DNA of 64,000 nt from Desulfobacterium sp. GTDB taxonomy: Bacteria > Desulfobacterota > Desulfobacteria > Desulfobacterales > Desulfobacteraceae. The notes beneath the pieces were generated by a model. The model was not told the origin of the DNA and searched no databases. It was given only the letters and a program-made list of their open reading frames with translations. How positions within the stretch are numbered: position 1 is the first letter of the stretch; every line of letters begins with the position of its first letter. A program made the translations under genes and the position numbers. The stretch covers positions 118,531-182,530 of the forward strand of contig JAVEQI010000001.1 of assembly GCA_034007745.1 (NCBI GenBank). Direction: 5' to 3'. Below are positions 2,686 through 62,819 of this stretch, piece by piece.

Positions 2686-2745
2686 GGCTACCTCCGTATT
2701 TTTTTTATGTGAAACGCGATATGAACTTCCATACGGCGACCGACA

Positions 2746-2770
2746 AGGGCAATTCACGAATTACCCCTAC
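2746..2770. repeat. REP-like palindromic repeat, family B (AGGGCAATTCACGAATTACCCCTAC)
   Basis: One of four related intergenic copies; the others are at 10841, 24673 and 42371. Confidence 0.6.
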
Positions 2771-11170: not shown

Positions 11171-14100
11171 ATGAAATTTACACGTCGTCATTTTTTAAAG
11201 CTTGCCGGGATGGGTGCTGCAATGGTGCCCCTCGGTCAGTTAGGAATAGATCTCAAACCTGTCCAGGCATTTGCAGCAGGTATGAAGATCGACGGGGCAA
11301 AAGAGGTAATTTCCATCTGCCCGTTCTGCGCTGTTACCTGTCACTATATCGCCCATGTCAAGGATGGTAAGATCATAAGCACCGAGGGTGATCCTGATTA
11401 CCCGGTAAGCGAAGGTAGCCTTTGCGCCAAGGGAGCGGCCCAGCTCTCCATGGTCAACAGTAAACACCGATTGTTAAAACCACTTTACAGGGCTCCCTTC
11501 AGCAACAAATGGGAGGAAAAATCCTGGGACTGGACCCTGGACCGACTGGCCAAAAACATCAAACAGACCCGGGATAAAGACTTTAAAGAAACCAATGCCC
11601 GGGGCGAGCGGGTCAACCGTGTGGAATCCATATTCCACCTTGGCTGTTCCATCATGGACAACGAAGAGTGCGCCATAGTTCACCAGGCGGCAAGGGGGCT
11701 TGGACTGGTCCATTTCGACCACCAAGCCAGGATCTGACACAGCGCAACTGTTGCGGCTCTGGGAGAGTCGTTTGGACGCGGTGCAATGACCAACCACTGG
11801 ATTGATCTTAAAAACTCAGACTGTATTTTTATCATGGGAAGCAATGCTGCAGAGCATCATCCCATCAGCTTTAAATGGATTTTGCGAGCCAAGGACAACG
11901 GCGCCAAAATCATGCATGTGGATCCGAAATTTTCAAGAACATCGGCAAGAAGTGATTTCCATGTACCCCTTCGATCGGGTACTGATCTCGCCTTTCTTGG
12001 CGGTATGCTCAAGTACATCATTGAGAATAAAAAATATTTTGAAGAGTATGTCGTTGAATACACCAACGCATCATTTATCATAGAAAAAGAGTTCACGTTT
12101 TCCAACGGTATGTTTTCAGGGTATAATGCAAATACCAGGGTCTATGACAAGAGTTCGTGGGCGTTCAAGAAAGACGCAAACGGCGTGCCCCTGCGGGACA
12201 AGACACTCCAGGACAAACGCTGCGTGTTTCAGCTCATGAAAGAGCACTATTCCCGATACAACATTGAGGACGTTTCAAAAATAACAGGCGTTTCTAAAGA
12301 AAATCTTCTCAAGGTGTGGGAGACATTTGCTGCGACCGGAGAAAAAGGCAAGGCAGGAGCGATCTGCTACGCACTTGGCTGGACTCAGCACACGGTGGGC
12401 GTTCAGAACATCCGTGCAAGCGCATTGATTCAGCTCCTTCTTGGAAATATAGGCGTTGCCGGCGGCGGCATTGAGGCCCTCAGGGGTGAGCCCAATGTCC
12501 AGGGTTCCACAGACCATGCAGTCCTCTGGCATATCATGCCAGGTTACCTGCCGGTGCCCCAGTCCCAGTTGACCACACTTGCCGACTACAACAAGGCAAA
12601 TACTCCTGTAAGCAATGACCCCCAAAGCGTCAACTGGTGGCAAAACAGGCCGAAATATGTGGCAAGCCTTCTCAAGGGCTGGTATGGAGACAAGGGAACA
12701 GAGGAGAACGGATTCGGGTACAACTGGCTACCCAAGGTCGATGCGGGTGAAGACTACTCTTATCTCTTCATTTTTGACCGCATGTACAACAACCAGATAA
12801 AGGGCGGCTTTATCTGGGGAACCAATCCGGCCCAGACCGTTCCCAACTCCAACAAGGTAAGAAAGGCCATGGAGAATCTGGATTGGGTCTGTTTTGCCGA
12901 AGTCCACAACACGGAAACCACAGATTTCTGGCATCGTCCCGGTGTAGATACGGCAAAGGTAAAAACTGAATGTTTTCTTTTGCCATCTGCCAACCGTGCT
13001 GAAAAAGAAGGCTCCATATCCAACAGTGGACGTTGGCAGCTGTGGCACTATCAAGCCACTAAGCCCCAGGGTGAGTGTCTTTCACTGGGTGACATGTGCG
13101 TCAAAATTACCAACAAGGTACGCGAACTCTACAAGAAGGATGGTGGAACCTATCCTGAGCCCCTCTTGAACCTTGATTTCCCAACAAGCTTTGAACCTGA
13201 AACAATCGCCCAGAAATGTAATGGGTGGTTCACAAAGGACACCGAAATCAACGGCAAACTCTACAAAAAAGGGCAGCAGGTACCGAGCTTCACCGCCCTC
13301 AAGGACGACGGTTCTACAGTTTCCCTGAACTGGCTCTACGCAGGCGGTTATACCGAAGAGGAGCTTGGTAAAAAGGAAAACAAGTCCAAACGCAGGGATT
13401 TCTCCCAGACTCCGGAGCAGGCGGCAATCGGCCTTTACCCCAACTACTCCTGGGCTTGGCCAGTCAACAGGCGCATCCTTTACAACCGGGCATCAGTAGA
13501 TCTTAACGGACAACCTTGGGCACCGGACAAGGCTGTTATTCGCTGGGACGGCAGCAAATGGATAGGCGATGTTCCCGACGGCGGCGCGCCTCCCCTTGCA
13601 ACGGGTAAGGGCACATATCCCTTTATCATGGAACAGGAAGGTCATGGCAAATTGTTTGGTCCCGGCCGCATGGAAGGACCGTTCCCCGAACACTACGAAC
13701 CTATTGAGACGCCGGTTACTACCCACCCGTTCTCAGACCAGCTCAGCAACCCCTGTGCGATCATTTTCCACGGTGAAATGGACAAACTTGCGGAACCTGC
13801 CGACAAACGATTCCCCATCGTCCTTACCACCTACAGCATGACCGAACACTGGTGCGGTGGCGGTGAAACCAGATACACGGAATCCCTTCTTGAGGCAGAA
13901 CCTCAACTCTACGTTGAGATGAGTCCAGAACTTGCCAAGGAAAAGGGTATTGAAAATGGCGACCCGGTAATTGTTGAAAGCATTAGAGGCCGGGTGGAGG
14001 CAATTGCCATGGTCACCGTCCGCCTGAGACCCTTCACCATCCAGGGCAAGACTGTTCATTTAGTCGGTATGCCATTTTGTTTCGGCTGGATCACAAAGGG

Positions 14101-43220: not shown

Positions 43221-45008
43221 TTAAAAAATAGAATTAAACGGGCACCGGGCATAACAGGTCATGCACTTTATGCACTTATCCTTGTCAATGACGGCCACCT
43301 GTTTTTTCTCCCAGATGATGGCACCGGCAGGACAGGCCTTGTAGCAAATCCCGCAGCGCTTGCAAAGTTCCGGATCAACTTCAAACTTGACCAGATTCGG
43401 GCAGATCTTTGCCGGGCATCTTTTTTCCTCGATGTGGGCCTCATACTCTTCTCTAAAATAGCGAAGGGTGGAAAGAACCGGGTTGGATGCAGTCTGACCC
43501 AGACCGCACAGGCTGGCCTTGCCAACTACATGGGCAAGGCCTTCCAGACGTTCGATATCTCCGGTCTTGCCGTTGCCAAGGCAGATCTCTTCCAGAATAT
43601 CAAGCATCTGCTTGGTGCCTTCCCGGCACGGGGTACATTTGCCGCAGGACTCGTCCTGAATGAAATCCATGAAATAACGCGCCATGTCCACCATGCAGGT
43701 GTGATCGTCCATGACAATGGCACCCCCCGACCCCATTATGGCTCCTACCTTGACAATCTCCTCGTAGTCGATACGGGTGTCAAGGTGCTCTTCGGGAACA
43801 CATCCGCCTGAAGGGCCGCCAAGTTGAAGGGCCTTGAATTTTCGTTTGTTGGGAACGCCTCCCCCTATTTCATATACCAAGGATCTCAGGGTCGTTCCCA
43901 TGGGAATTTCCACAAGGCCTATGTTGGACACGTCTCCTGACAGGGCAAACACCTTAGTACCCTTGCTCTTTTCCGTTCCAACACCTGCATACCACTTTCC
44001 CCCTTTGAGTATGATCTGGGGGACATTGACAAGGGTCTCGACATTATTGAGGATGGTGGGTTTTTCCCAGAGTCCCTTGTGGGCCGGAAACGGAGGACGG
44101 GGCCTTGGCATACCCCGGTTCCCCTCAATGGATCGCATAAGGGCCGTTTCTTCACCGCACACAAAAGCACCCGCCCCCTGATACACTTCGATATCAAAAT
44201 CAAATCCCGAGCCCAGGATATCCTCACCCAGGAGCCCGTAATCCCTGGCCTGGGCAATGGCAATGCCAAGACGCCTGATGGCAAGGGGATATTCGCTCCT
44301 GCAGTAGATATATCCCTTGTGGGCATTTATGGCCTTGGCGGCAATGGTCATACCCTCAAGAACGGCGTGGGGGTCAGACTCTAAAAGACTTCTGTCCATA
44401 AAGGCCCCTGGATCTCCCTCGTCTGCGTTACAGAGAACATACTTTTCATCTCCCTCGGCCCCTTTGGCAAACTTCCACTTCATGCCAGCGGGAAAGCCCG
44501 CACCTCCCCTGCCCCTCAACCCCGAAGCAAGCATCTCTTCAATGATACCGTCCGCCGTCATCTCGTTGAGAGCCTTTGCAAGGCCGAAATAGCCGTCCCT
44601 TGCAATATACTCATCTATCACCTCTGGATCAATGAGCCCCTTGTTTCGCATGGCCCGGAACATCTGGCTTGCAAAAAAAGGAATGTCATCCATCCTGGGA
44701 ATAATGTTTTTTGAGGCTGGTTCCTTGTAAAAAAGACGTTTGAGCGGCCTGCCCTTGAGGAAATGTTCCTCCACGAGCTCAGCTGCATCCTCCGGCTTAA
44801 TTTTTTGATAAAATATACCTTCCGGCTGAACCACCATTACAGGACCCACGGCACAGAAGCCGTTACACCCGGTTATGATGATTTCCACCTCATCCTTGAG
44901 GCCCTGATCTTCGATCTCCCGGGATAGCGCCTCTCTTACCCGCTCACTCCCGGTTGCATGGCATCCGGTTCCGCCGCAGAGCATGAGCTGTAATCTGATT
45001 TTATTCAT
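43221..45008 (-). CDS. NuoF-like NAD(P)H-binding flavoprotein (HydB/HndC/FdhB type) with an N-terminal thioredoxin-like 2Fe-2S domain and C-terminal 2x[4Fe-4S]
   Basis: GRGGAGFPAGMKW (FMN/NADH site), ESCGKCTPCREG, C-terminal CxxCxxCxxxCP twice, N-terminal CGGTGCHA...GCNGFC. Confidence 0.88.
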   Translation of the reverse strand: MNKIRLQLMLCGGTGCHATGSERVREALSREIEDQGLKDEVEIIITGCNGFCAVGPVMVVQPEGIFYQKIKPEDAAELVEEHFLKGRPLKRLFYKEPASKNIIPRMDDIPFFASQMFRAMRNKGLIDPEVIDEYIARDGYFGLAKALNEMTADGIIEEMLASGLRGRGGAGFPAGMKWKFAKGAEGDEKYVLCNADEGDPGAFMDRSLLESDPHAVLEGMTIAAKAINAHKGYIYCRSEYPLAIRRLGIAIAQARDYGLLGEDILGSGFDFDIEVYQGAGAFVCGEETALMRSIEGNRGMPRPRPPFPAHKGLWEKPTILNNVETLVNVPQIILKGGKWYAGVGTEKSKGTKVFALSGDVSNIGLVEIPMGTTLRSLVYEIGGGVPNKRKFKALQLGGPSGGCVPEEHLDTRIDYEEIVKVGAIMGSGGAIVMDDHTCMVDMARYFMDFIQDESCGKCTPCREGTKQMLDILEEICLGNGKTGDIERLEGLAHVVGKASLCGLGQTASNPVLSTLRYFREEYEAHIEEKRCPAKICPNLVKFEVDPELCKRCGICYKACPAGAIIWEKKQVAVIDKDKCIKCMTCYARCPFNSIF

Positions 45009-45028: not shown

Positions 45029-45523
45029 CTATTCGTATTTTTCCAGAATATTGATCACCTTATCCGAGGTCACCTCACCGTAAATATCCTTATCAACGAT
45101 CATTACAGGTGCAAGGCCGCAGGCGCCAAGACACCTGACCCCCTCAAGGGAAAACTTTCGATCTTCACTTGTCTCTCCCTCCTTGATCCCATAGGTGTTG
45201 CTGATACGCCCCATAGCCTCTTTTATGCCCTTGACATAGCAGGCCGTACCCGTGCATACCTTAACTGTATGGCGACCCTTTGGGGTAAGGGAAAAAAAAG
45301 AATAAAAGGTTACCACTCCAAACACCTGGCTTGTGGGCAAAACAAGCCCCTGGCTTATGTGACGGATAAGTTCAGCCGGCAAATACCCCACGACTTCCTG
45401 GCTTTCACGAAGAACGGCTATCACGGAACCCGGCTTGCCCTTGCCGTTTGCAATGATTTTATTTATTTTTCCCCACATCTCCTCTGAAATGTCTGGATGA
45501 ACGGGATGTCTGGTTTGATTCAT
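45029..45523 (-). CDS. NuoE-like 2Fe-2S subunit (HydC/HndA type)
   Basis: VCTGTACYVKG...CLGACGLAPV is the thioredoxin-like 2Fe-2S motif. Confidence 0.88.
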   Translation of the reverse strand: MNQTRHPVHPDISEEMWGKINKIIANGKGKPGSVIAVLRESQEVVGYLPAELIRHISQGLVLPTSQVFGVVTFYSFFSLTPKGRHTVKVCTGTACYVKGIKEAMGRISNTYGIKEGETSEDRKFSLEGVRCLGACGLAPVMIVDKDIYGEVTSDKVINILEKYE

Positions 45524-45621: not shown

Positions 45622-46296
45622 TCATCGTTCAAAATTTTCCAGAACCGGTACTCTGTCCATGGAGGCAAGACGCTCCAGTACAGCATCGTACTCTTTGAAC
45701 CTTGACTGCCAGACGTACTGCCCCATGGCATGCAAGTTTTTACACCAAGTCACTATAACTCGTATACAAAATGGACCCATGGTGCTCCAGGGGCATGATC
45801 TCAGGATACGCAAGCCTTTGGGGCAAAAGGGGAATGCACCCCATACCCACGGCCTCCACCACCGAGATACCGAAATTTTCCTGAATTGCGCAGCTCACAA
45901 CCACGTGGCCCTGACTGAGCCATTCAAAGTACTCCTGCTTGGATTCGACATGGCCGAATACCACAATCTCCCTATGGAACACCTCTTTTGCGGCAACAAA
46001 AGCCTTGGAAACTTTTGAGACTCCCTCACCAAGAAGTGCCAGCCTGAAAGGAATCCCCCTCTGTTTGATCTCACCCAGGGCCCTGAAAAACCGTTGTGGC
46101 TTTTTATCATACTCCCAGCGATGGTTCCAGATGATCAGGGGGAAGAAGCTTTCTTTCCTGCCTGGGTTTAACCTGCATGGCTTGAATGTTCTTTCAAACC
46201 CAGGGCAAAATCCCTGTAGGACCCCCCAAAATATGATTCCAGAAAAAGAAACTTCACCAGCTCCTCCCTGCCTGTCTGCCTGTTACTGTTTTCCAT
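45622..46296 (-). pseudogene. Decayed DUF3524-type family-1 glycosyltransferase (internal deletion plus frameshifts)
   Basis: An N-terminal piece MENSNRQTGREELVKFLFLESYFGGSYRDFALGLKEHSSH runs into a stop. A second frame gives FFPLIIWNHRWEYDKKPQRFF...QENFGISVVEAVGMGCIPLLP...YTSYSDLV*. A third frame gives KNLHAMGQYVWQSRFKEYDAVLERL... About 220 codons remain of an expected roughly 370. Confidence 0.6.
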
Positions 46297-46372: not shown

Positions 46373-46726
46373 ATGATACTTTCAGAAATAGCCGTCATAC
46401 TAAATGCCAAATTTCTTTTTGGCGAGGAAATGGGCGCAAAAAAGATTCTCAAGATTGGAGCAAGCGACCTGATGAGCGATCTTCTGACCGCTGATTCGGC
46501 AGGCTCACTTATTCTGACAGGCCTTGCCACACAGCAGGCTGTTAGGGCTGCCTCCATAGCCGGGGCAAGCGCCATTGTTCTGATCAGGGGAAAAAATCCT
46601 CCCCAGGAGATCATTGATCTTGCAAGGGAGGAGAATATTCCCCTTCTTACCACCCCCCTGTCAATGTTTGTCGCAAGCGGACGTCTCTATATGCATGAAC
46701 TCAAAGGCCTTAACAACGGGCGGTAA
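46373..46726 (+). CDS. DRTGG-domain protein
   Basis: GASDLMSDLL...GSLILTGLATQQAVRAASIAGASAIVL..GK.PPQEIIDLAREENIPLL matches the DRTGG family pattern. Confidence 0.7.
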   Translation: MILSEIAVILNAKFLFGEEMGAKKILKIGASDLMSDLLTADSAGSLILTGLATQQAVRAASIAGASAIVLIRGKNPPQEIIDLAREENIPLLTTPLSMFVASGRLYMHELKGLNNGR

Positions 46727-46738
46727 TCCGGAGGTCCC

Positions 46739-47167
46739 ATGGAAAACCTGGTAAAAACATTTCTCATCAAGCACAGAGATTTTGTCCATGCCGGAAAGCC
46801 GTCCATCGAAATAAAGAACATACTAAAATCCCTTAACACATCACCCGACATTATCCGCAGGGTTGCCGTCTGCGGCTACGAGGGAGAAATGAACGTTGTC
46901 ATGCATGCGTGCAACGGCCGCATGGACCTTGAGCTGTCTGCCACAAGAATAAAGCTGCGCATCAGGGATAAAGGACCGGGCATCAAAGATATCGACCAGG
47001 CCATGCAGGTGGGTTTTTCAACGGCCCCTGACGAGTTCAGGGAGCTGGGGTTTGGTGCGGGCATGGGGCTGCCAAACATGAAAAAAAATGCCGACCAGTT
47101 TGAAATAATCTCCGGCCCTGGAGAGGGAACAACCATTACGATGGAATTTAAAACCGGAGGGGGCTGA
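46739..47167 (+). CDS. RsbW/SpoIIAB-like HATPase_c protein (anti-sigma-type Ser/Thr kinase fold)
   Basis: EMNVVMHA..., IRDKGPGI, GFGAGMGLPNMKK, GEGTTI (N, G1 and G2 boxes). Confidence 0.7.
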   Translation: MENLVKTFLIKHRDFVHAGKPSIEIKNILKSLNTSPDIIRRVAVCGYEGEMNVVMHACNGRMDLELSATRIKLRIRDKGPGIKDIDQAMQVGFSTAPDEFRELGFGAGMGLPNMKKNADQFEIISGPGEGTTITMEFKTGGG

Positions 47168-48825
47168 TGAATAAGGCGGGAAGCCTTCCATGCTATGTCT
47201 CCTTTAACAGCCGGGACTGCACCGGATGCGGAGCCTGCGTCAAGGTCTGTCCCACAAAAGCCATCCGCATCAAAGACGGCAAGAGTATTCTCCTTGTAGA
47301 CAGCTGCATAGGAGGCGGGGAATGCATAGGCGTATGTCCCCGAGAATGCATCACCCCGATCACCTATCCCTACGGACAATTCAAAAAAGCCCGTTTACCA
47401 GTCGTGCTTGTGCCTCCGGTTCTCTACTCCCAGTTCGCCCATGTCCCCCCGAAAAAGGTACTTGCAGGACTCAAACGAATGGGGTTTAAACACACAGTGG
47501 ACATGTCCTACTTCCTGACCATGTTTAAAAAGGCCACAGAACAGCACATACAAAGCCTTGGCACACCCGGAGAGGGGCGTCCGGTCATCTCCACTCTCTG
47601 CCCTGTGGTGCTGCGACTGATCGCCTTCAGGTTCCCAAGCCTCATGGGCCTTCTCCACCCGGTGCTCAGACCCGTATCCCTCATGGTCAAGGATGTGGCC
47701 ACCTTTCTCGCCAGACACCATGGCGTCGCTATCGGGGAGATTTCCATCTTCTACTTAAACCCATGCTCCACCAAGATGACGCCGGAAAGCTCGACCCACC
47801 ACCACACCACACCCTACCCTTCCAGAACCATCGGAATCAACCAGATCTATGCAGAGCTAAAGCATGAGATAAAATCCCTGGAAAGCTTGCCCCTTAACTC
47901 ACCCCTGGCCTCGGAACACGAATTCGAGTTTGAAGAACCACCAACGGGCAGCAGCCTTTTATGGGCCATTTCAGGAGGAGAGACGGCCGGAACCACCATC
48001 CAGAACTCAATCGCAATATCCGGCATGGATCAGACCATTGAGTATCTTGAGAAATTAGAACTCGGTCTTTTCAAGGAGTATGACTTTATTGAATTCAGGA
48101 CATGCCGGGAGGGGTGTGTGGGCGGTCCTTTGTGCGCCGTTGACAAGTATGGGGCAAAAAACAACCTGCTCCAGCACATTGCAAGGCTTGAGATAAAGGA
48201 TCGCCATGAAAAAAGTCCCATTAAGAATGTCTATGCAAAAGAGCGGTTTTTTGACCGTTTGACCTCCGCAAAGATGGAAAAAATTTTTGGTCAGAAAAAA
48301 GAACCTCTCTCCATTGCAGACCTCACCAATATCAACCAGATATATGATCAACTGCCCGGGTTCAACTGTTCGGCCTGCGGAGCACCCGACTGCCGCACCT
48401 TTGCCGAGGATGTTGTCAGGGGGAGGGCCGCTCTGGGAGAATGCAGAATACTTGGACAGAAAATTTCACCCGATAAAAGGAGCAAAATGTTGAAAGTAAA
48501 GGATTTAAAGGACAGGTTGAACCTTGTCCTCGCAGCTGGAGAAGAGGGGCTTGACCGCTCCTTTTCAGGCGGGTACTGCGGGGACCTTTTAAGCGATGTC
48601 ATGGCAAATGCTTTGGAACATAACGTCTGGCTGACGGTCCAGGCCCACCAGAACATTGTTGCCGTGGCCGTGCTAAAGGAGATCTCCTGCATCATCATAA
48701 CCTGCGGCAACCGACCGGACCAGGCTACCTGCCGCAAGGCCGACGAAGAAAAGATCCCCCTGTTTTTATCGGACCGGACGGCCTTTGACCTTGCAGCAGA
48801 AGTTGGTCTGCTTCAGGCGGAGTGA
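47167..48825 (+). CDS. [FeFe]-hydrogenase-like (H-domain) protein with an N-terminal ferredoxin domain and C-terminal 4-Cys Fe-S and DRTGG domains; putative sensory type
   Basis: CTGCGACVKVCP plus a degenerate CIGGGECIGVCP. H-cluster motifs: L1 STLCP (canonical TSCCP, first Cys is Leu144), L2 NPCSTKMTPE, L3 EFRTCREGCVGGP. Then CSACGAPDCRTFAEDVVRG...C (RnfB-type Fe-S domain) and a DRTGG-like tail. Confidence 0.75.
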   Translation: MNKAGSLPCYVSFNSRDCTGCGACVKVCPTKAIRIKDGKSILLVDSCIGGGECIGVCPRECITPITYPYGQFKKARLPVVLVPPVLYSQFAHVPPKKVLAGLKRMGFKHTVDMSYFLTMFKKATEQHIQSLGTPGEGRPVISTLCPVVLRLIAFRFPSLMGLLHPVLRPVSLMVKDVATFLARHHGVAIGEISIFYLNPCSTKMTPESSTHHHTTPYPSRTIGINQIYAELKHEIKSLESLPLNSPLASEHEFEFEEPPTGSSLLWAISGGETAGTTIQNSIAISGMDQTIEYLEKLELGLFKEYDFIEFRTCREGCVGGPLCAVDKYGAKNNLLQHIARLEIKDRHEKSPIKNVYAKERFFDRLTSAKMEKIFGQKKEPLSIADLTNINQIYDQLPGFNCSACGAPDCRTFAEDVVRGRAALGECRILGQKISPDKRSKMLKVKDLKDRLNLVLAAGEEGLDRSFSGGYCGDLLSDVMANALEHNVWLTVQAHQNIVAVAVLKEISCIIITCGNRPDQATCRKADEEKIPLFLSDRTAFDLAAEVGLLQAE

Positions 48826-49585
48826 TCCCTTGCCCCGGGCAGACAAACAATGCTTCAGGGCAGATCTCCACATCCACACCTGTCTCTCCCCCTGTGGAGA
48901 ATGGGAGATGACCCCGCAACGAATAATCAAACGGGCCAGGGACCTTAATCTGGACATCCTGGCAATCTGTGATCACAACTCATCAAAAAATGCCAGACCC
49001 ATTGTAGAGCTTGGTAAAATTGCAGGCATCCTTGTTCTGCCGGGCCTTGAAATCTGCACACGAGAGGAGGTTCACCTGCTTGGTATCCACAAACGGGTTC
49101 ACCAGGCAGAGGCCGTGGCAGATGAGATTTACCGGGGACTTACTCAGGACAACGCCCCCGATATTTTTGGTTTTCAGGTCATTGCCGACGAACAGGACAT
49201 GGTGATCGGACAGGAGCCAAAACTACTGATCCAGGCTTGTCACCTCACGGTCCAGGAGGCTGTGGATCTCATTCACCGGGAACAGGGCCTTGCCATTGCC
49301 GCCCACATCGACCGACCAAGCTACAGCATCCTTGGCCAGCTTGGCTTCATCCCTCATGATCTCAGCCTTGACGGCATCGAAATAACGGCCAGAACAATGG
49401 CCCAAAGACAGGAACACTATTTTCTTGACAAAACTTCACTGCCCTGTTTAGTATCATCCGACGCCCACCGCCTGGCTGAAATAGGACAGGGAATCACCCT
49501 GTTTAACATGACCGGCAAAACATTTGAAGCCATGGCATCAGCGCTGAAAAAGGGCAATACCGATTTCCAGACAAGAGGATTTTAA
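48785..49585 (+). CDS. PHP-domain phosphoesterase
   Basis: ADLHIHTCLSPCG and ICDHNS metal-binding motifs. The start is uncertain; TTG candidates are at 48785, 48803 and 48830, and the last lies just after the upstream stop. Confidence 0.7.
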   Translation: MTLQQKLVCFRRSDPLPRADKQCFRADLHIHTCLSPCGEWEMTPQRIIKRARDLNLDILAICDHNSSKNARPIVELGKIAGILVLPGLEICTREEVHLLGIHKRVHQAEAVADEIYRGLTQDNAPDIFGFQVIADEQDMVIGQEPKLLIQACHLTVQEAVDLIHREQGLAIAAHIDRPSYSILGQLGFIPHDLSLDGIEITARTMAQRQEHYFLDKTSLPCLVSSDAHRLAEIGQGITLFNMTGKTFEAMASALKKGNTDFQTRGF

Positions 49586-49593
49586 ACGATAAG

Positions 49594-50127
49594 TTGAAAG
49601 AGCTGTCACTGCACATCCTGGACCTTGCTGAGAACAGCATTCAGGCAGGGGCAAGTAAGGTGGGTATTGCAATAGACGAGACTCATCTTGACACCCACAT
49701 CAAGATCACGGTCACGGACAACGGCAGGGGCATTGATCCCGAAAGGCTTGCGGTTATTTCTAATCCCTTTGTCACCTCCAGGACCACAAGAAGGGTGGGA
49801 CTGGGAATTTCTCTTTTCAAGGCGGCATCCCAAAGGTGCGATGGGGAGTTCTCCATTCAAAGCCGGGAAGGCAAAGGAACGACGATCTCGGCCACCTTTG
49901 CCATCGACCACCTGGACAGAGCCCCGGTGGGTGATATGGGCGCCACCATCACAAATCTTATTGCGGGTTACCCCGACATAGGTATAAAATACCATCATAG
50001 GCTTTATGGCGACAGCTTTACAATGGACACGACCGAACTTGCAGCAGGCCTGGATACAGTGGAACTCAACGACCCGGCCATCCTGTCCAGGATAAAAGAG
50101 ATGGTAAACGACTTTTGCAGACAATAA
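49594..50127 (+). CDS. Stand-alone HATPase_c (GHKL) protein
   Basis: HILDLAENSIQAGA, DNGRGI and GLGISL motifs. TTG start. Confidence 0.65.
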   Translation: MKELSLHILDLAENSIQAGASKVGIAIDETHLDTHIKITVTDNGRGIDPERLAVISNPFVTSRTTRRVGLGISLFKAASQRCDGEFSIQSREGKGTTISATFAIDHLDRAPVGDMGATITNLIAGYPDIGIKYHHRLYGDSFTMDTTELAAGLDTVELNDPAILSRIKEMVNDFCRQ

Positions 50128-50173
50128 CCGTCACGGCCGTAGCAAAGTTTCTAATTAGAATAAGGATGTAAAA

Positions 50174-50542
50174 ATGGCAAAAATTTCAGTGGAAGATCTA
50201 CGACAAATCAAGGAAAAAACCTCCCAGAATTCATCGCTCAGGGGAGGTACGACAACGGTTAAAATAACAGTCCACATGGGAACCTGCGGCATTGCTGCAG
50301 GGGCAAGGAGTGTCATGGACACCCTTTTGGAAGAAAAGATCAAATCAGATAAAACAGACATCAAAATAGTTGCCGCAGGCTGTCTTGGCATGTGCAACAG
50401 CGAGCCCAACGTCACCGTTGAAATACTTGGGCAGGAAACCATAGTATACAAAAAAATGGACCCCAACAAAACAAGACAGGTATTCAGACGCCACATCCTG
50501 AAGGGGGAAGTCCAGACCGATTTTGCCCTGGCAAAGGGGTAA
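50174..50542 (+). CDS. Thioredoxin-like [2Fe-2S] ferredoxin
   Basis: VHMGTCGIAAGA ... AGCLGMCNSEPNV is the 4-Cys motif. Confidence 0.8.
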   Translation: MAKISVEDLRQIKEKTSQNSSLRGGTTTVKITVHMGTCGIAAGARSVMDTLLEEKIKSDKTDIKIVAAGCLGMCNSEPNVTVEILGQETIVYKKMDPNKTRQVFRRHILKGEVQTDFALAKG

Positions 50543-50615: not shown

Positions 50616-52265
50616 ATGGGTGTCAAAATCATTGAGCAAACTGAATCAGCCTATGCCTACCCGCTGCTGATCAAAAACCTTCTGACCAACTCTCTTGTAC
50701 GTTCCCCAGACCAGGAGATTATCTACAGGGATCAGATGCGCTATACCTACCGGGACTTCCACCGGCGGGTGGCCCAGCTTGCCAACGGCCTTGAAGGACT
50801 CGGTGTAAAACAGGGAGACACGGTTGCCGTCATGGATTTTGACAGCCATCGCTACCTTGAGTGTTATTTTGCCGTGCCCATGATGGGAGCCGTGCTTCAC
50901 ACGGTTCATATAAGGCTGTCGCCCGAGCAGATCCTCTACACCATCAACCATGCAGAGGATGACGTTCTCCTTGTGAATTCGGAGCTTCTTCCCCTTTTAG
51001 AGCCCATCTACTCCAAGATTAAAACCGTTAAAAAAATTATTCTGATGAGGGAAACCGATCAAGAGCCCGAAACAGCGATTGAATTTGCAACCGATTATGA
51101 AACCCTGGTAACCGGTTCCAAGGAGACCTATGATTTCCCGGATTTTGACGAAAATGCCATGGCCACGACCTTTTACACCTCCGGCACCACGGGTGACCCC
51201 AAGGGTGTCTACTTCAGCCACCGTCAGATCGTGATGCACACCTTCGGTCTGATGACGGGACTTTGCGCCTATCACTCCCAGGCTGTAATGACCTCAAAGG
51301 ACGTTTATATGCCCCTCACCCCCATGTTCCACGTCCATGCCTGGGGTATGCCGTATCTTTTTACCATGCTCGGCAACCGCCAGGTCTATCCCGGCCGGTA
51401 TGAGCCTGCCATGATCTTGAAACTCGTAGTCACGGAAAAGGTCACCTTTTCCCACTGTGTTCCAACAATAATCCACATGCTTGTCAACTCACCTGTGATC
51501 AAAACCGTGGATCTTTCCGCCTGGAAGGTAGTCATTGGCGGTTCAGCCCTTCCAAAGGGACTCTGTACGGCTGCCATGAAGGCAAACATCAACCTTTATT
51601 CAGCCTATGGCATGTCTGAGACCTGCCCGCTCCTCACAGTTGCGCACATTAAGCCCCACATGGAAGATTGGGACGAAGAACGGCTGATCGACATCCGATG
51701 CAAAACAGGTCTTCCCATTCCCCTTGTGGATCTTGAAATTATAGACCCATTGGGGAACCCGGTGCCCCACGACGGAATTCAGACGGGGGAAGTGGTTGCA
51801 AGAACCCCCTGGCTCACCCAGGGATACCTCAAAAGTCCTGAAAAGAGCGAAGAACTCTGGCAGGGGGGCTGGCTCCACACAGGAGACGTGGGTAACATCG
51901 ATGCCGAAGGCTATCTAAAGATTACCGACCGTGTAAAAGATGTTATCAAGACGGGCGGTGAGTGGGTATCTTCCCTTGAGTTAGAAGACATAGCAAGCCG
52001 TCATCCTGCCGTGAGTGAAGCCGCAGCCATAGGTATCACCGACGAGAAATGGGGAGAGAGACCCATTGTTCTTGTAGTTCTAAAGGAAGAGATGAAAGGC
52101 CAGGACCTTGAGGCCGATATAAAGCAGGCCTTTGTTGACCAGTATGACCTGGGAAATCTTCCTAAGTACGGCATTCCCGACCAGATTCTACTCGTGGATT
52201 CCATTCCAAAAACAGGGGTTGGCAAACTCGATAAAAAGGTGATCCGAAGTCAATACAATGAATAA
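50616..52265 (+). CDS. AMP-forming fatty-acid--CoA ligase
   Basis: YTSGTTGDPKG AMP-binding motif, GWLHTGD and GKLDKK. RBS AGGAGG. Confidence 0.85.
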   Translation: MGVKIIEQTESAYAYPLLIKNLLTNSLVRSPDQEIIYRDQMRYTYRDFHRRVAQLANGLEGLGVKQGDTVAVMDFDSHRYLECYFAVPMMGAVLHTVHIRLSPEQILYTINHAEDDVLLVNSELLPLLEPIYSKIKTVKKIILMRETDQEPETAIEFATDYETLVTGSKETYDFPDFDENAMATTFYTSGTTGDPKGVYFSHRQIVMHTFGLMTGLCAYHSQAVMTSKDVYMPLTPMFHVHAWGMPYLFTMLGNRQVYPGRYEPAMILKLVVTEKVTFSHCVPTIIHMLVNSPVIKTVDLSAWKVVIGGSALPKGLCTAAMKANINLYSAYGMSETCPLLTVAHIKPHMEDWDEERLIDIRCKTGLPIPLVDLEIIDPLGNPVPHDGIQTGEVVARTPWLTQGYLKSPEKSEELWQGGWLHTGDVGNIDAEGYLKITDRVKDVIKTGGEWVSSLELEDIASRHPAVSEAAAIGITDEKWGERPIVLVVLKEEMKGQDLEADIKQAFVDQYDLGNLPKYGIPDQILLVDSIPKTGVGKLDKKVIRSQYNE

Positions 52266-58883: not shown

Positions 58884-60035
58884 TCAATAACGTAACACTG
58901 CTGCAACAAAAGCCTGGTCAGGAACTTTTTCCGGTGAAACGGCAAATACCGCACCACCCTTGAGCAAGGTTTGGATGGCCGTAAAATCCAAAAGATCCTC
59001 GTCGCCGGGTTGCGGGGTTTCATGCAGATCTACTCGATTATTTTCTGGATCGAACCGGCCCCACACCTGCACGTCCAGGGCGACAAAGAGCACTGCGATC
59101 CGCCCGTGATGGGCCGCCAGAACCGCCTCTACAAGGTCGTTCGTGGTCTGTCCGGTGCCGGCAAGCTGTCGATACCGAGCGAAACCTGCTTCCCGTTCCC
59201 TGTCAAACACCGGCTCGACGATGGCCCAGGCCGGCGGGAGAAAATCTTCCGGCTTCATTTCATCGGGATTCCCCGGAATCCCTTCCTCCACCAGATGCGG
59301 ATAGGTATTCACTTCTTTATAGAGCGGGAAAAGAGTGTCTACACCAGCCAACACCAGTGGAGATGGCGCATCTGAGAGAAGCTTTACCACCGCTTTATCA
59401 ATTGTGCGAAACCATTGTTGGAGGTGGCTTTTTACGTCTTCGCTGGGGTCGTGTCCATGGAACAGGGGGGCCTGGTTTCCACTCCTCAATGGCTTTCCCG
59501 TATGAAATTGGAGCTGTTTTTCCGGAAAACCGTTCGGAAAGGTTGCGGCAAGTGTTTCAGGCATATCGTCCAGATTGATTTCATCCACCGTATGCTGCGT
59601 TCCCTCCAGCAGTCGAAGCCGGTTCTGGCTGATCGCAAGGATATGGAAAGTGCCGTCACTGGTCAGTAGCGGCAGAAGCGGCTTGACATGAAAACGGTCC
59701 GTGACGACCACAAGCTCTGTAAATTGAATGGGCAGTCTGAAAAGATGAAAGTCATCCTCCGAAAAAAACACCGCCAGCCCGTCGCTTTGATGCCGCCAGA
59801 AACCGTTGTCCTCAAGCAGGCGCCGGGGGTTTTTGAGTCTTTCCTGCACCTCCGGTGTCCGCAGGCCCTTGGCCGACAGCCGTTCTTCCACCTCCTGCAG
59901 CAGATTCTTGAAACGAATAGGATTCTGCTCTGTTTCCCGTCCGGCCCGATGTGTTGGCATAAACAGCGAAATACACCAGCCAAAACGTTTTGTTAAAAAA
60001 GTTTCTTTTAATTTTTCCATGGTAATCAGATCCAT
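58884..60035 (-). CDS. Conserved hypothetical protein (383 aa); possibly a bacterial eRF1/Pelota-like (baeRF) family member
   Basis: N-terminus ...SLFMPTHRAGRETEQNPIRFKNLL..., central FHGHDPSED, C-terminus DLLDFTAIQTLLKGGAVFAV. The assignment is from memory of family hallmarks and is not verified. Confidence 0.55.
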   Translation of the reverse strand: MDLITMEKLKETFLTKRFGWCISLFMPTHRAGRETEQNPIRFKNLLQEVEERLSAKGLRTPEVQERLKNPRRLLEDNGFWRHQSDGLAVFFSEDDFHLFRLPIQFTELVVVTDRFHVKPLLPLLTSDGTFHILAISQNRLRLLEGTQHTVDEINLDDMPETLAATFPNGFPEKQLQFHTGKPLRSGNQAPLFHGHDPSEDVKSHLQQWFRTIDKAVVKLLSDAPSPLVLAGVDTLFPLYKEVNTYPHLVEEGIPGNPDEMKPEDFLPPAWAIVEPVFDREREAGFARYRQLAGTGQTTNDLVEAVLAAHHGRIAVLFVALDVQVWGRFDPENNRVDLHETPQPGDEDLLDFTAIQTLLKGGAVFAVSPEKVPDQAFVAAVLRY

Positions 60036-60110: not shown

Positions 60111-62819
60111 TCATTGTTCATGGTTTTTGTGAGAATCGGCACTATCCTCGGAAAAAGACCCCAACGAGATCATAAGTTCGAATTCTCCGGTACCAGGGCC
60201 TGCCTTCACCTGAAAACCCAGTTTTTTCCCCAGGGCAAGCATGCTTTGGTTTTCACGCATAACTATACCCTGCACCTTTTGATAACCCTGCTTTTTGGCG
60301 ATCTTCAGACATTTTTCAAGCAGACTTGAACCAATTCCAATGCCATGCCAGGGATCCCCGACCACAACGGCGAACTCCCCTAACTTCCTATCCGGATCTC
60401 CCATGATCCTGGCCACCCCCAGCATCTGGTCAACTTGAGGATCATCATCCAGGGCCACCAATGCGATTTCCCGGTCGTAATCAATCTGGGTGAACCTGGC
60501 CAGCATTTCAAGGTCAAATTCCTTGATATGGCTGAAGAAGCGGTTATAGATGGTCTCTGGCGATAATACCTTTGCAAAGTTTTGAAAAAGAGAGGCATCC
60601 TCCGGGCGGACAGGGCGTACAAACAGCCGGGTTCCCTCTTCAGTGACCAGGTGGCTCTCATCCTCTTGCGGATAGGGGCTGATCACAAGGTGCAGAGGGT
60701 AAGGGCGTACCGGTTCTGAGACGAGAATGCGGGCATCCACGGCCACAGCCTTTCCGTCCTTGATCATGACAGGGTTCATGTCCAGTTCCGCAATCTGGGG
60801 AAAATCAATCAGCATCTGGGAGAGCCGGATGATCATCTCTTCGAGTGCTTCCATATCCGCCGGTGGGCGGTTCCGATACCCTTGCAACAGGGTCCAGGCC
60901 CGGGTCTTCTGCATCATGCGCCGGGCCAGAAGCTGATTCAGGGGGGGAAGTCCCAAAGCCCGGTCTTTGAGCACCTCAGTAAAGATACCACCCATTCCGA
61001 ACAATATCACCGGCCCGAAATGAACATCTCGTTTGGCACCCAGCAGAATCTCATAATCTGGATTTGCAAAAAGCGGCTGCAGGGTGATGCCCTCGATTTG
61101 CGCATCGGCTTTGTACCGACGGGCGGACTCAACGATTCCGGTAAAGGCCTCCCGGACATCTTCATCCGAGCGCAGATCCAGGCGGATACCGCCGGCCTCG
61201 GTTTTGTGTGAGATGTCCGGGGATAGAAGCTTCATAACCAGGGGGTACCCCATCTCCTGTCCCAGGCGGCTTGCATCGTCTTTGGTTGTGGCCGTTTCCG
61301 TCCGAATCACGGGAAGGCCGTAGGCCGAAAGTACATCCCGAGCATCGGATTCGGCCATGAACTTACCTGCGGCCGCACGAGCCAGCATTTTTTCGGCTTT
61401 TTTTGAATCAACAGAAATCTCACGGGTCAGTTTGGGGGGGATTTCCAGAACGTCTTCCATGTTGCGGGCATATTCAACCATGTACAAAAATGCCCGGATA
61501 GCCCGTTCGGGTGTATCGTAGGTGGGGATACCCGCCTTGTTGAGGATGGTCAAGGCGCCTTCAATGCTTTTCCCGCCCATCCAACAGGCAAATACGGGAT
61601 ACAGGCGGCCCTTCATCATGTCCACCAGGGTTTTGGCCACCACAACAGGATCTGTGAAGGCCTGGGGCGTAAGAATCACACAAACGCCGTCATAATCCTT
61701 TGTATCGCAACAAACCTCCAGCGTTTGCCGAAAACGGTCCGGAGAGGCATCTCCGAGGATATCGATGGGGTTGCTACGGCTCCAGAAGGGCGGCAGAAAA
61801 GCATCGAGCCGTTGGAGGGTGTCAGGGCCAAGGGGGGCCGGTACAAGACCTGAGCGTGCCATGGCGTCCGTGGCCATCACGCCGGGGCCGCCGGCATTGG
61901 TGACAATAGCCAGGCGCGAGCCCCGGGGCCGGGGTTGCTTGGCCATCAGTTCGGCGCAGTCAAAAAGATCCTGGATCGTGTCTACGCGCACGACGCCGGC
62001 GCGCTTGAAGGCGGCGTCATACACCGCATCCTCCCCGGCCATGGCACCGGTGTGGGAAGCGGCGGCCTTGGCGCCAGCCTCACTTCGACCTGCTTTCAGG
62101 ACGATAATGGGTTTGATTCGGGACACCGAGCGTGCTGCGCTCATGAACTTGCGGAAATTCGTCAGGCTTTCGACATAAAGCAGAATGCTTTTAGCCGACG
62201 GGTCATTACCGATATAGTTGATGAGATCACCGAAATCCACATCCAGCATGGAACCGATGCTGACAAAATGGCTGAATCCGATGTTCTCCTTGAATGCCAG
62301 GTCCAGAATGGCAGTGCAGATGGCCCCACTCTGGGAGATAAAAGCCAGGTCTCCGGCAGCGGGCATCCCGGCGGCAAAGCTGGCATTGAGGCTGCTGCCG
62401 GGCCGGATGATACCCAGGCAGTTGGGGCCCACGATGCGAAGCCCGCCTGCATAGGCTGTGGTGCGGATCTGCTCCTCGATTTTACTTCCGGCTTCGCCTA
62501 CCTCCTTTCCGCCGGCCGAAATGATGATGGCCCCGGCGGTTTTATTCTTAACGCACGCCTGTACAATATCGGGGACCGTATGAATGGGGGTGGCAATGAT
62601 CGCCAGGTCCACCCCCGGTTCCAGATCCCGGATGGATTTCACAGTGGCCAATCCATGCACTGTTTCGTATTTCGGATTGACGGGTAATAGAGTCTGGGAG
62701 AATCCGCCCTCAACTAGGTTTTTCATCAGTGCGTTGCCGATGCTGCCGGTTTTTTCACTTGCGCCTATCACCGCCACCCGGCGAGGCTTGAAGATACGCT
62801 CCAGGTTATATTGACTCAT
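60111..62819 (-). CDS. pat: Pat/YfiQ-like protein lysine acetyltransferase (NDP-forming acyl-CoA-synthetase-like domain plus C-terminal GNAT)
   Basis: The N-terminal ~700 aa are colinear with the acd gene at 25277 (PRRVAVIGAS, SHTGAMAG, ATP-grasp). The C-terminus has a GNAT core, VVVGDPWHGIGIGSSLLEKCLKIAKKQGY. Confidence 0.8.
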   Translation of the reverse strand: MSQYNLERIFKPRRVAVIGASEKTGSIGNALMKNLVEGGFSQTLLPVNPKYETVHGLATVKSIRDLEPGVDLAIIATPIHTVPDIVQACVKNKTAGAIIISAGGKEVGEAGSKIEEQIRTTAYAGGLRIVGPNCLGIIRPGSSLNASFAAGMPAAGDLAFISQSGAICTAILDLAFKENIGFSHFVSIGSMLDVDFGDLINYIGNDPSAKSILLYVESLTNFRKFMSAARSVSRIKPIIVLKAGRSEAGAKAAASHTGAMAGEDAVYDAAFKRAGVVRVDTIQDLFDCAELMAKQPRPRGSRLAIVTNAGGPGVMATDAMARSGLVPAPLGPDTLQRLDAFLPPFWSRSNPIDILGDASPDRFRQTLEVCCDTKDYDGVCVILTPQAFTDPVVVAKTLVDMMKGRLYPVFACWMGGKSIEGALTILNKAGIPTYDTPERAIRAFLYMVEYARNMEDVLEIPPKLTREISVDSKKAEKMLARAAAGKFMAESDARDVLSAYGLPVIRTETATTKDDASRLGQEMGYPLVMKLLSPDISHKTEAGGIRLDLRSDEDVREAFTGIVESARRYKADAQIEGITLQPLFANPDYEILLGAKRDVHFGPVILFGMGGIFTEVLKDRALGLPPLNQLLARRMMQKTRAWTLLQGYRNRPPADMEALEEMIIRLSQMLIDFPQIAELDMNPVMIKDGKAVAVDARILVSEPVRPYPLHLVISPYPQEDESHLVTEEGTRLFVRPVRPEDASLFQNFAKVLSPETIYNRFFSHIKEFDLEMLARFTQIDYDREIALVALDDDPQVDQMLGVARIMGDPDRKLGEFAVVVGDPWHGIGIGSSLLEKCLKIAKKQGYQKVQGIVMRENQSMLALGKKLGFQVKAGPGTGEFELMISLGSFSEDSADSHKNHEQ

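Follow-up and report, generated by a model that had tools for sequence, protein, structure and literature searches.

Within a 64,000-nucleotide stretch of a Desulfobacterium sp. genome (contig JAVEQI010000001.1, positions 118,531-182,530, assembly GCA_034007745.1; hereafter the window), six consecutive plus-strand open reading frames (ORFs) at positions 46373-50542 form a cluster around a homologue of the [FeFe] hydrogenases. Judged by its sequence, this protein is a HydS of the group D (M2e) type, putatively a sensor. It belongs to a Desulfobacterales clade that has its own active-site signature and lies outside the published group D list; this clade is new here, while the module itself is already known from hydrogen-producing bacteria, solely as the unexplained neighbours of group D HydS. 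The chances seem to us about even that the six genes constitute an accessory, probably regulatory, module of HydS that serves HydBC-like NuoEF proteins and the selenocysteine (Sec) formate dehydrogenases (FDHs) of the Wood-Ljungdahl pathway, and not a bifurcating hydrogenase.

HydS and its Desulfobacterales relatives

The third gene of the cluster (hydS, 47167-48825 on the plus strand) encodes a 552-residue protein. Searches of the six ORF products with Pfam and NCBIfam profiles identified in it two Fer4 motifs, an Fe_hyd_lg_C domain (residues 85-321), an FeS domain (PF04060, residues 396-427) and a DRTGG domain (residues 477-546), with no Pfam match to a PAS domain. On the plus strand these correspond to an F-domain at nucleotides ~47197-47355, an H-domain at ~47419-48129, an iron-sulphur domain at 48352-48447 and a fused DRTGG domain, DRTGG2, at ~48487-48822. 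The last of these scores 23.7 bits, just below the cutoff of 25.2, and its orthologues and split-gene counterparts are recognised as DRTGG. An initial annotation, made from the sequence alone, had singled out most of the diagnostic residues, and these were recovered exactly: the H-cluster cysteines are C145 (STLCP), C200 (NPCSTK) and C313 and C317 (TCREGC), the position of the proton-relay cysteine C299 of CpI is occupied by Leu144, the second ferredoxin motif is the degenerate CIGGGEC with three of its four cysteines kept, and the extra four-cysteine domain is formed by C401, C404, C409 and C426 in a Cx2Cx4Cx16C arrangement. This last motif has been assigned to subclasses M2e and M2f (PMC8163306).

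The group placement was made by pairwise comparison, with the group D enzyme TamHydS and the group A and B structures in the PDB as references. TamHydS (435 residues) was rebuilt from the coding sequence in the supplement of PMC13104023; all residue numbers in the literature fit the rebuilt protein, which is 96-99% identical to Thermoanaerobacter database proteins. HydS and TamHydS are colinear from the first ferredoxin motif through to the final C-terminal cluster cysteine, with 30% identity and an E value of 2e-67, whereas the group A and B enzymes match with E values of 1e-8 to 1e-13 and 16-19% identity. When AlphaFold2 (AF2) models were searched with Foldseek, the top matches to the HydS model (pLDDT, or predicted local distance difference test, 77.5) were all [FeFe] hydrogenases.

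The residues of the proton path proposed for group D point in part in the same direction. S249, E252 and D265 of that path are specific to group D, while E289 is kept in other groups too, and S249 and E252 are not conserved in group C (PMC10407848). TamHydS S249, E252 and E289 align with S269, E272 and E309 of HydS, and E392 and D393 with E414 and D415; the equivalent of D265 is Ser285. Across 48 HydS sequences that include both the Desulfobacterales clade and canonical group D, the H-cluster cysteines are invariant or nearly so; the invariant positions include C145, C313, C317, G270-G271-E272, E309 and C401/404/409/426, and S269 is nearly invariant. K203, the equivalent of CpI K358, is conserved across the clade. 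These comparisons, the S-G-G-E residues and the gene neighbourhood described below favour the placement first suggested in the initial annotation, among the sensory classes and not with the catalytic group A enzymes. Since C299 is replaced, the ferredoxin motifs are eroded and the NuoG-like N-terminal domain common to HydA and FdhA, which would provide a docking site, is missing, HydS is probably a sensor rather than a catalyst.

HydS thus resembles TamHydS in having two Fer4 motifs, a short H-domain and the Cx2Cx4Cx16C cluster in the same order, in the absence of PAS, in the retention of the four H-cluster cysteines with loss of C299, and in the identity of the flanking genes (DRTGG, SpoIIAB-like ATPase, DRTGG, PHP, GHKL ATPase and a small thioredoxin (Trx)-like protein). 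Apart from the modest overall identity, the window protein differs from it in its degenerate ferredoxin motif, its fused DRTGG domain, the Leu at the C299 position (Ala in TamHydS), Asn at the M353 position (Ser/Thr there), Arg at the M497 position (Leu there) and Ser at the D265 position. The group C (M2f) proteins TmHydS, RaHydS and HfsB, compared by their published descriptions, share the F-domain, H-domain, four-cysteine cluster, a small output domain and the missing C299, and they too have kinase and phosphatase genes nearby (PMC8163306, PMC8924675); however, they carry PAS where the window protein has DRTGG, and the equivalents of E252 and S249 are present here.

Several of these differences define a clade. 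Searched exhaustively, 1.84 billion cluster representatives gave 178 HydS relatives at E ≤ 1e-30 (homologues with P numbers below), and active-site and ferredoxin-motif residues were counted over up to 120 clade members and 120 canonical group D sequences. At the C299 position the clade has Val, Leu, Met or Ile, compared with Ala or Ser in canonical group D. A hydroxyl residue (Ser/Thr) at M353 is a well-conserved property of M2e and was found in all 120 canonical sequences, whereas every one of 113 clade members has Asn (Asn198 in the window). Arg takes the place of the canonical Leu at M497 in 119 of 120. Both CxxCxxCxxxC ferredoxin motifs are intact in 120/120 canonical sequences but only 20/120 clade members, and one motif is eroded in 98/120. 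Erosion has struck different motifs in different sublineages, because the first motif of P0024-type members of ~560 residues (e.g. locus L003, 10001-11683) reads C-x2-H-x2-C-x3-C, with His for the second Cys, and some 526-residue forms lack the first motif entirely. The list of 70 group D enzymes in PMC13104023 contains none from Desulfobacterota. Two Desulfobacterales genomes carry tandem hydS duplicates inside the module (L079, 10001-12599; L083, 8587-11260).

The DRTGG domain, often fused to HydS in the clade, is not part of this signature. The initial annotation was right that HydS has its own DRTGG in place of PAS, but this is no peculiarity of the genome: it is a fusion/fission variant found across several lineages. 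We rejected the fusion as a distinctive trait on two grounds. In the close relative L002 DRTGG2 is a separate gene of 111-116 residues, as it is in L087 and L088, and the fusion also occurs in a Bacillota metagenome-assembled genome and in L090, whose hydABC operon is normal.

The accessory proteins and their natural fusions

The six tightly packed genes have the order and the domains first described, with agreement between the ORFs and the Pfam and NCBIfam matches. Two details of the gene boundaries were corrected. Genes 2 and 3, thought to overlap by 4 nt at 47167, share just 1 nt (TGATG). The 41-nt overlap of hydS with the PHP gene (48785-48825) was rejected as an artefact of choosing the first TTG of the ORF as the start codon: conservation among 72 orthologues starts at about residue 26 of the long form, the TTG at 48830 has a GGAG 7 nt upstream, and its 251-residue product matches the 249-251 residues of the orthologues, so that the PHP gene begins 4 nt past the hydS stop. 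No terminator-like site was found on the plus strand within the cluster, scans with Rfam and for tRNAs gave no regulatory RNA in its vicinity, and domain calls detected no DNA-binding domain in any of the six genes.

The first gene, DRTGG1 (46373-46726, plus strand), encodes a stand-alone DRTGG-domain protein of 117 residues (PF07085, 5.8e-08, 33 bits against a cutoff of 25.2). Its most conserved motif in 73 orthologues is S31-D-L-M-S35-D36, and the closest solved structures are the DRTGG domain of a CBS-pyrophosphatase (3L2B) and the N-domain of HPr kinase. HATP1 (46739-47167, plus strand; 142 residues) is a SpoIIAB/RsbW-like GHKL ATPase, a putative Ser kinase or partner-switching protein. 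It matches HATPase_c and HATPase_c_2, its best NCBIfam family is anti-sigma F factor SpoIIAB (TIGR01925, 3.2e-15, 56 bits against a 135-bit cutoff), SpoIIAB in the PDB matches at 1e-4, and the N-box, G1 (DxGxG) and G2 are kept in 78 orthologues. In SpoIIAB-SpoIIAA-SpoIIE and RsbW-RsbV-RsbU partner-switching modules, a small GHKL Ser-kinase-like protein is likewise encoded in an operon with a small alpha/beta partner and a phosphoesterase; there, however, the partner is a STAS protein and the phosphoesterase a PP2C, compared with DRTGG and PHP here, and the annotated loci have no sigma-factor gene in or near the cluster. No STAS gene was found in any annotated neighbourhood either, and no receiver-domain (response-regulator) gene is annotated in the neighbourhoods examined.

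The PHP gene (48830-49585, plus strand, with the revised start) encodes a metal-dependent phosphoesterase of 251 residues with PHP and PHP_C matches, whose ligands HxH (DLHIHT), DHN and SDAH are kept in the 72 orthologues. HATP2 (49594-50127, plus strand; 177 residues) is a second, free-standing GHKL ATPase, matching HATPase_c (2.1e-18) and HATPase_c_3. Its AF2 model (pLDDT 88.4) shows a single GHKL domain plus a C-terminal extension, in which H106, D108, P111, G113, Y133 and H135 are conserved. ATP-binding motifs are conserved in both GHKL proteins.

The sixth gene (50174-50542, plus strand) encodes a 122-residue, HydD-like protein that had been called a thioredoxin-like 2Fe-2S ferredoxin. 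It is indeed Trx-like in kind: the Pfam 2Fe-2S_thioredx-like match is sub-threshold (21.5 against 24.8), and the PDB matches are the N-termini of the Bfu B subunits 8oh5_B and 9n5u_B, which makes it paralogous to the [2Fe-2S] domain at the N-terminus of HydB, NfnB and StnB. Ferredoxins of the NuoE/HydB-N type have four Cys ligands (Cx4C...Cx3C), but here just three cysteines are conserved (C38, C70 and C74): the motif reads C38-GIAA-G43...C70-x3-C74, and Gly occupies the second canonical ligand position in 65/65 orthologues. A standard 2Fe-2S ferredoxin was therefore rejected.

Natural fusions link these parts to HydS. P0370 and P0400 carry an N-terminal DRTGG domain fused to HydS, P0433 and P0498 an N-terminal SpoIIAB-like ATPase (HATPase_c_2), and C-terminal HydS-DRTGG fusions like that of the window occur among homologues of odd length. 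Because the parts are naturally fused and split, the DRTGG and SpoIIAB-like ATPase proteins probably act with HydS, and the fusions indicate, at the level of sequence, a physical complex of HydS with both.

Gene neighbourhood, NuoEF and formate dehydrogenases

A scan of one genome per species gave 80 loci, nearly all from Desulfobacterales (loci carry labels between L001 and L090), and linkage was counted over 57 non-redundant Desulfobacterota loci with sufficient flank. The initial annotation had made its proposal depend on co-conservation of the six genes; the complete set is present in 46 of the 57 loci, an arrangement far beyond chance. NuoE accompanies it in 42/57 and NuoF in 38/57, and in at least 13 loci the module is directly linked via NuoEF to a Sec-containing, NuoG-type FdhA. 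These counts strengthen what had been a guess, that the output may fall on formate- and NADH-linked enzymes. The Trx-like gene always adjoins HATP2 and in colinear loci sits between nuoE and nuoF. L053 and L074 share the arrangement fdhA(Sec)-nuoE-DRTGG-ATPase-HydS-DRTGG-PHP-ATPase-Trx-nuoF, after which come rnf genes, and nuoE is colinear with the module in L046 as well. Elsewhere, in Desulfoluna and other genera (L057, L058, L063-65, L072 and others), nuoE-nuoF-fdhA run divergently from the module. Eight loci have an additional DRTGG gene between nuoE and nuoF.

In the window, the divergent minus-strand genes are a NuoE/HydC-like [2Fe-2S] subunit (45029-45523; PF01257 in orthologous loci), which is probably what the module partners or targets, and a 595-residue NuoF/HydB-like flavoprotein (43221-45008), for which Pfam matches in orthologous loci give a Trx-like N-domain, a 51K FMN/NADH domain, NADH_4Fe-4S and two Fer4 motifs. 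This NuoF is 61% identical over 591 residues to Thermoanaerobacter HydB. The wider context is as first described, with three FDHs, FolD, FTHFS and carbon monoxide dehydrogenase/acetyl-CoA synthase (CODH/ACS) genes and no catalytic hydrogenase in the window. FdhA no. 1 (2997-5780, plus strand), a candidate for the catalytic partner of NuoEF whose orthologues adjoin NuoEF and the module in at least 13 loci, has Fer2_4, Fer4_Nqo3, Molybdop_Fe4S4, Molybdopterin and Molydop_binding matches; it and FdhA no. 2 (7688-10450, minus strand) both begin with a NuoG-like domain, the FdhA N-terminus being 33-44% identical to that of HydA. The third FdhA belongs to the periplasmic FdhAB type and is accompanied by FdhE. 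Mechanical gene calling split each of the three into two ORFs at an in-frame TGA (4146-4148, 9320-9322 and, on the plus strand, 11735-11737, respectively) that falls at the conserved HCAR-U-H, so that all three are presumably selenocysteine enzymes. The likeness to the flavin-based, electron-bifurcating HydABC-type complexes of the Bfu family, which includes NuoEF-linked FDHs, thus extends over the HydB-like NuoF, the HydC-like NuoE and the NuoG-like N-terminus that FdhA shares with HydA; the difference is that the catalytic partner in the clade would be a Sec-FDH, not a hydrogenase.

The same set of genes is found in the usual setting of group D, where HydS is encoded together with a group A bifurcating HydABC or upstream of it. 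In Thermoanaerobacter and Caldicellulosiruptor bescii the order is DRTGG (117 residues)-HATPase_c_2 ATPase-HydS-DRTGG (111-116 residues)-PHP-HydC-HATPase_c/_3 ATPase-a protein of 121-129 residues-HydB-HydA, and in a third, metagenomic lineage the same genes surround HydS inside a hydABC operon. Because the Firmicutes series holds all six genes, the module is a known but uncharacterised group D neighbourhood; the Desulfobacterales clade differs in having HydBC-like NuoEF and no HydA. Apparent 'HydA_A3' matches in 18 clade loci were rejected, being HydS itself or the NuoG-like N-terminus of FdhA.

A matching layout, next to acs genes, is present in Desulforapulum autotrophicum HRM2 (CP001087.1, about 1.887-1.908 Mb). 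The 850-bp spacer between nuoE and DRTGG1 in the window holds the remnant of a QTMAN_N/GT4 glycosyltransferase gene (45731-46257, minus strand; residues 1-27 and 182-324 of 379, 70% identity); L001, L002 and D. autotrophicum HRM2 keep this gene intact at the same position. Directly 3′ of the module lies an AMP-binding acyl-CoA synthetase gene (50616-52265, plus strand) that is kept there in the Desulfobacterium/Desulforapulum lineage alone (77-97% identity). Beyond it, the dciA, methyltransferase, dnaX, ybaB and recR genes are syntenic as well.

Adjoining FdhA no. 1 is a 716-residue protein (607-2757, minus strand) that combines PF04060, two ferredoxin motifs and a GltD-like Fer4_20/Pyr_redox_2 module. 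The GltD-like module is fused to NuoF in L074 (14392-17418, 1008 residues), and a 635-residue version follows NuoF in L003 (2086-3993), which may point to an NADPH-linked branch of the NuoEF complex. In two unrelated lineages, genes for diadenylate cyclase (DAC) are immediate neighbours of the module (L001, 7565-9010, minus strand; L090, 16365-17210, plus strand). Considered with the nucleotide-type PHP esterase, they could reflect a link to c-di-AMP, or coincidence. Further off in the window, a baeRF-family (bacterial archaeo-eukaryotic release factor-like) gene (58884-60035, minus strand) adjoins a gene (60111-62819, minus strand) for a 902-residue protein that joins an ADP-forming acyl-CoA synthetase and a GNAT acetyltransferase domain.

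Possible roles of the module

The signalling route of group D is still described as unknown (PMC8163306, PMC13104023, PMC11216029), in agreement with the initial annotation, and the group was called functionally undefined in a 2024 Cell paper (PMC11216029). TamHydS has low activity and a Km for H2 below those of the group A and C enzymes (PMC8163306, PMC10407848, PMC13104023). By homology to it, HydS, if matured with a [2Fe] subcluster, would bind H2 and turn it over slowly, without the C299 relay and with the S-G-G-E/E309 path kept. From its architecture, the change of state could pass through the Cx2Cx4Cx16C cluster domain to the fused DRTGG, which stands at the position of the group C PAS. 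HydS would be joined in a complex by the free DRTGG protein and the SpoIIAB-like ATPase, as the fusions in other lineages suggest. The ATPase may then bind or phosphorylate DRTGG according to the state of HydS, by analogy with SpoIIAB and SpoIIAA, and the PHP esterase may reset the switch. The output would be post-translational control of NuoEF/HydBC, with HATP2 and the Trx-like protein acting at that module; we favour a post-translational output on this target because of the gene linkage, the position between nuoE and nuoF and the lack of a DNA-binding component. Electron flow between formate/CO2 and NAD(P)H/ferredoxin would in this way be adjusted to the level of H2. Poudel et al. in 2016 reportedly described regulatory genes beside multimeric HydA, as well as mass-spectrometric evidence that purified HydABC is phosphorylated. 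We infer H2 binding, the phosphorylation of DRTGG, the reset by PHP and the effect on NuoEF and FDH from parts whose identity and conservation are plain in the sequences.

A more specific proposal is tentative and, in our view, rather unlikely to hold in full. It states that a sensor derived from a hydrogenase has been redirected to an enzyme that is not one: the HydS subclade of Wood-Ljungdahl Desulfobacterales, with its Asn/Arg active-site signature and eroded relay clusters, senses H2 (or CO or redox state, if it has no diiron site) and post-translationally gates NuoEF-dependent Sec-FDH via an undescribed partner switch of GHKL ATPase and DRTGG that is reset by PHP, and that the same switch would be the output route of all group D sensors.

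Several observations weigh against the regulatory scheme as a whole. HATP2 has no DHp/HisKA match and hence no phospho-acceptor domain; in Foldseek comparisons it resembles histidine kinase CA domains over its first ~100 residues, but over its full length it fits best on the ATPase domains of MutL-N and Topo VI-B. The closest solved relatives of the PHP protein are RNase AM/TrpH-type esterases, which act on nucleotides. Phospho-signalling, as first proposed for the cluster, was over-specific and is at present an argument from analogy, while the interpretation of the cluster as a sensory module is largely right. DRTGG is not STAS, and we know of no kinase that phosphorylates a DRTGG domain. The DRTGG part of the HydS model is placed with low confidence (pLDDT 43-80). 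The fdhA genes of the window lie 35-43 kb from nuoEF, so that the FDH link rests on other genomes. A simple redox relay through HydS also sits poorly with electron paramagnetic resonance of TamHydS, in which the C-terminal cluster was unresponsive to H2 (PMC13104023).

The difficulty that carries furthest concerns maturation. Signatures of radical-SAM and HydF-like ORFs were sought in the window and 88 loci and gave no HydEFG candidates; 440-residue ORFs that fit the crude maturase pattern have no Pfam match. Around the 57 clade loci, neither these maturases nor group A HydA were found in a distance of 10 kb. The H-domain might then lack a [2Fe] subcluster, having been co-opted from a hydrogenase as an iron-sulphur redox sensor or a CO or O2 sensor that reports the state of ferredoxin and NADH, or CO beside CODH/ACS. 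We regard this as unlikely, but because HydE, HydF and HydG lie near no locus it keeps appreciable weight. The clade-distinctive Asn (M353) and Arg (M497) beside the would-be diiron site, unlike the residues of characterised groups, fit such a protein, and in the Desulfobacterium/Desulforapulum lineage the module directly adjoins acsC-acsE-cooC. A Desulfobacteraceae genome paper lists [NiFe] hydrogenases only (PMC4046663), and nothing was found in the literature on maturases in Desulfobacterales or HRM2. However, maturase genes often lie apart from those of the hydrogenase, so that their local absence says little, and the clade-wide conservation of the four H-cluster cysteines, K203 and S269/E272/E309 is hard to explain if there is no diiron site.

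A catalytic role seems somewhat less probable still. HydS might be a slow catalytic subunit in electron exchange with NuoEF and the Trx-like protein, forming with FdhA a formate-hydrogen-lyase-like or NAD(P)H/ferredoxin-linked complex, in which the ATPases, DRTGG and PHP would be secondary. Interconversion of H+ and H2 by TamHydS is on record (PMC8163306). The linkage of HydS with NuoE, NuoF and FdhA, all within one operon in L053 and L074, would suit such a complex, as would the paralogy of the gene 6 protein with the HydB N-domain. Soboh et al. in 2004 are said to have co-purified a HydD of similar size with the Thermoanaerobacter tengcongensis hydrogenase. But the erosion of a ferredoxin motif in most of the clade, the replacement of C299 and the lack of the NuoG-like N-terminal domain of HydA and FdhA are not what is expected of a catalytic subunit, and in Firmicutes the module shares its operon with a genuine HydA, so that HydS is not the catalytic subunit there.

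The last alternative, an assembly or maintenance system for HydBC/NuoEF complexes in which the GHKL proteins are conformational chaperones, the Trx-like protein is a cluster donor or placeholder and PHP is a nucleotide esterase, would account for the likeness of full-length HATP2 to the MutL/Topo VI-B clamp ATPases, for the nucleotide-acting relatives of PHP, for a three-cysteine Trx-like protein that could hold a labile or shared cluster and for the company that the module keeps with NuoEF/HydBC across lineages, but we consider it improbable, as it leaves the conserved H-cluster-type domain and its fused DRTGG or ATPase variants unexplained, the nearest match of HATP1 is the anti-sigma Ser kinase SpoIIAB, and the HydABC structures were solved without module proteins (PDB 7p5h, 8a6t, 7q4w).

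Returning to a regulatory module of group D HydS, its significance lies first in the conservation of the complete accessory gene set from Firmicutes to Desulfobacterota. Since the set follows the HydBC/NuoEF flavoprotein module, and not the hydrogenase subunit, NuoEF/HydBC is the target to which it points, and the fusions mark out, as direct partners for HydS, the SpoIIAB-like ATPase and the DRTGG domains. The FDH-linked version occurs in the cultured D. autotrophicum HRM2, which grows on H2 and on formate; a context free of HydA and linked to FDH, together with the fusions, opens HydS signalling to experiment in a cultured organism. If the link to FDH is true, marine sulfate reducers would have the formate step of their Wood-Ljungdahl pathway tuned directly by H2.

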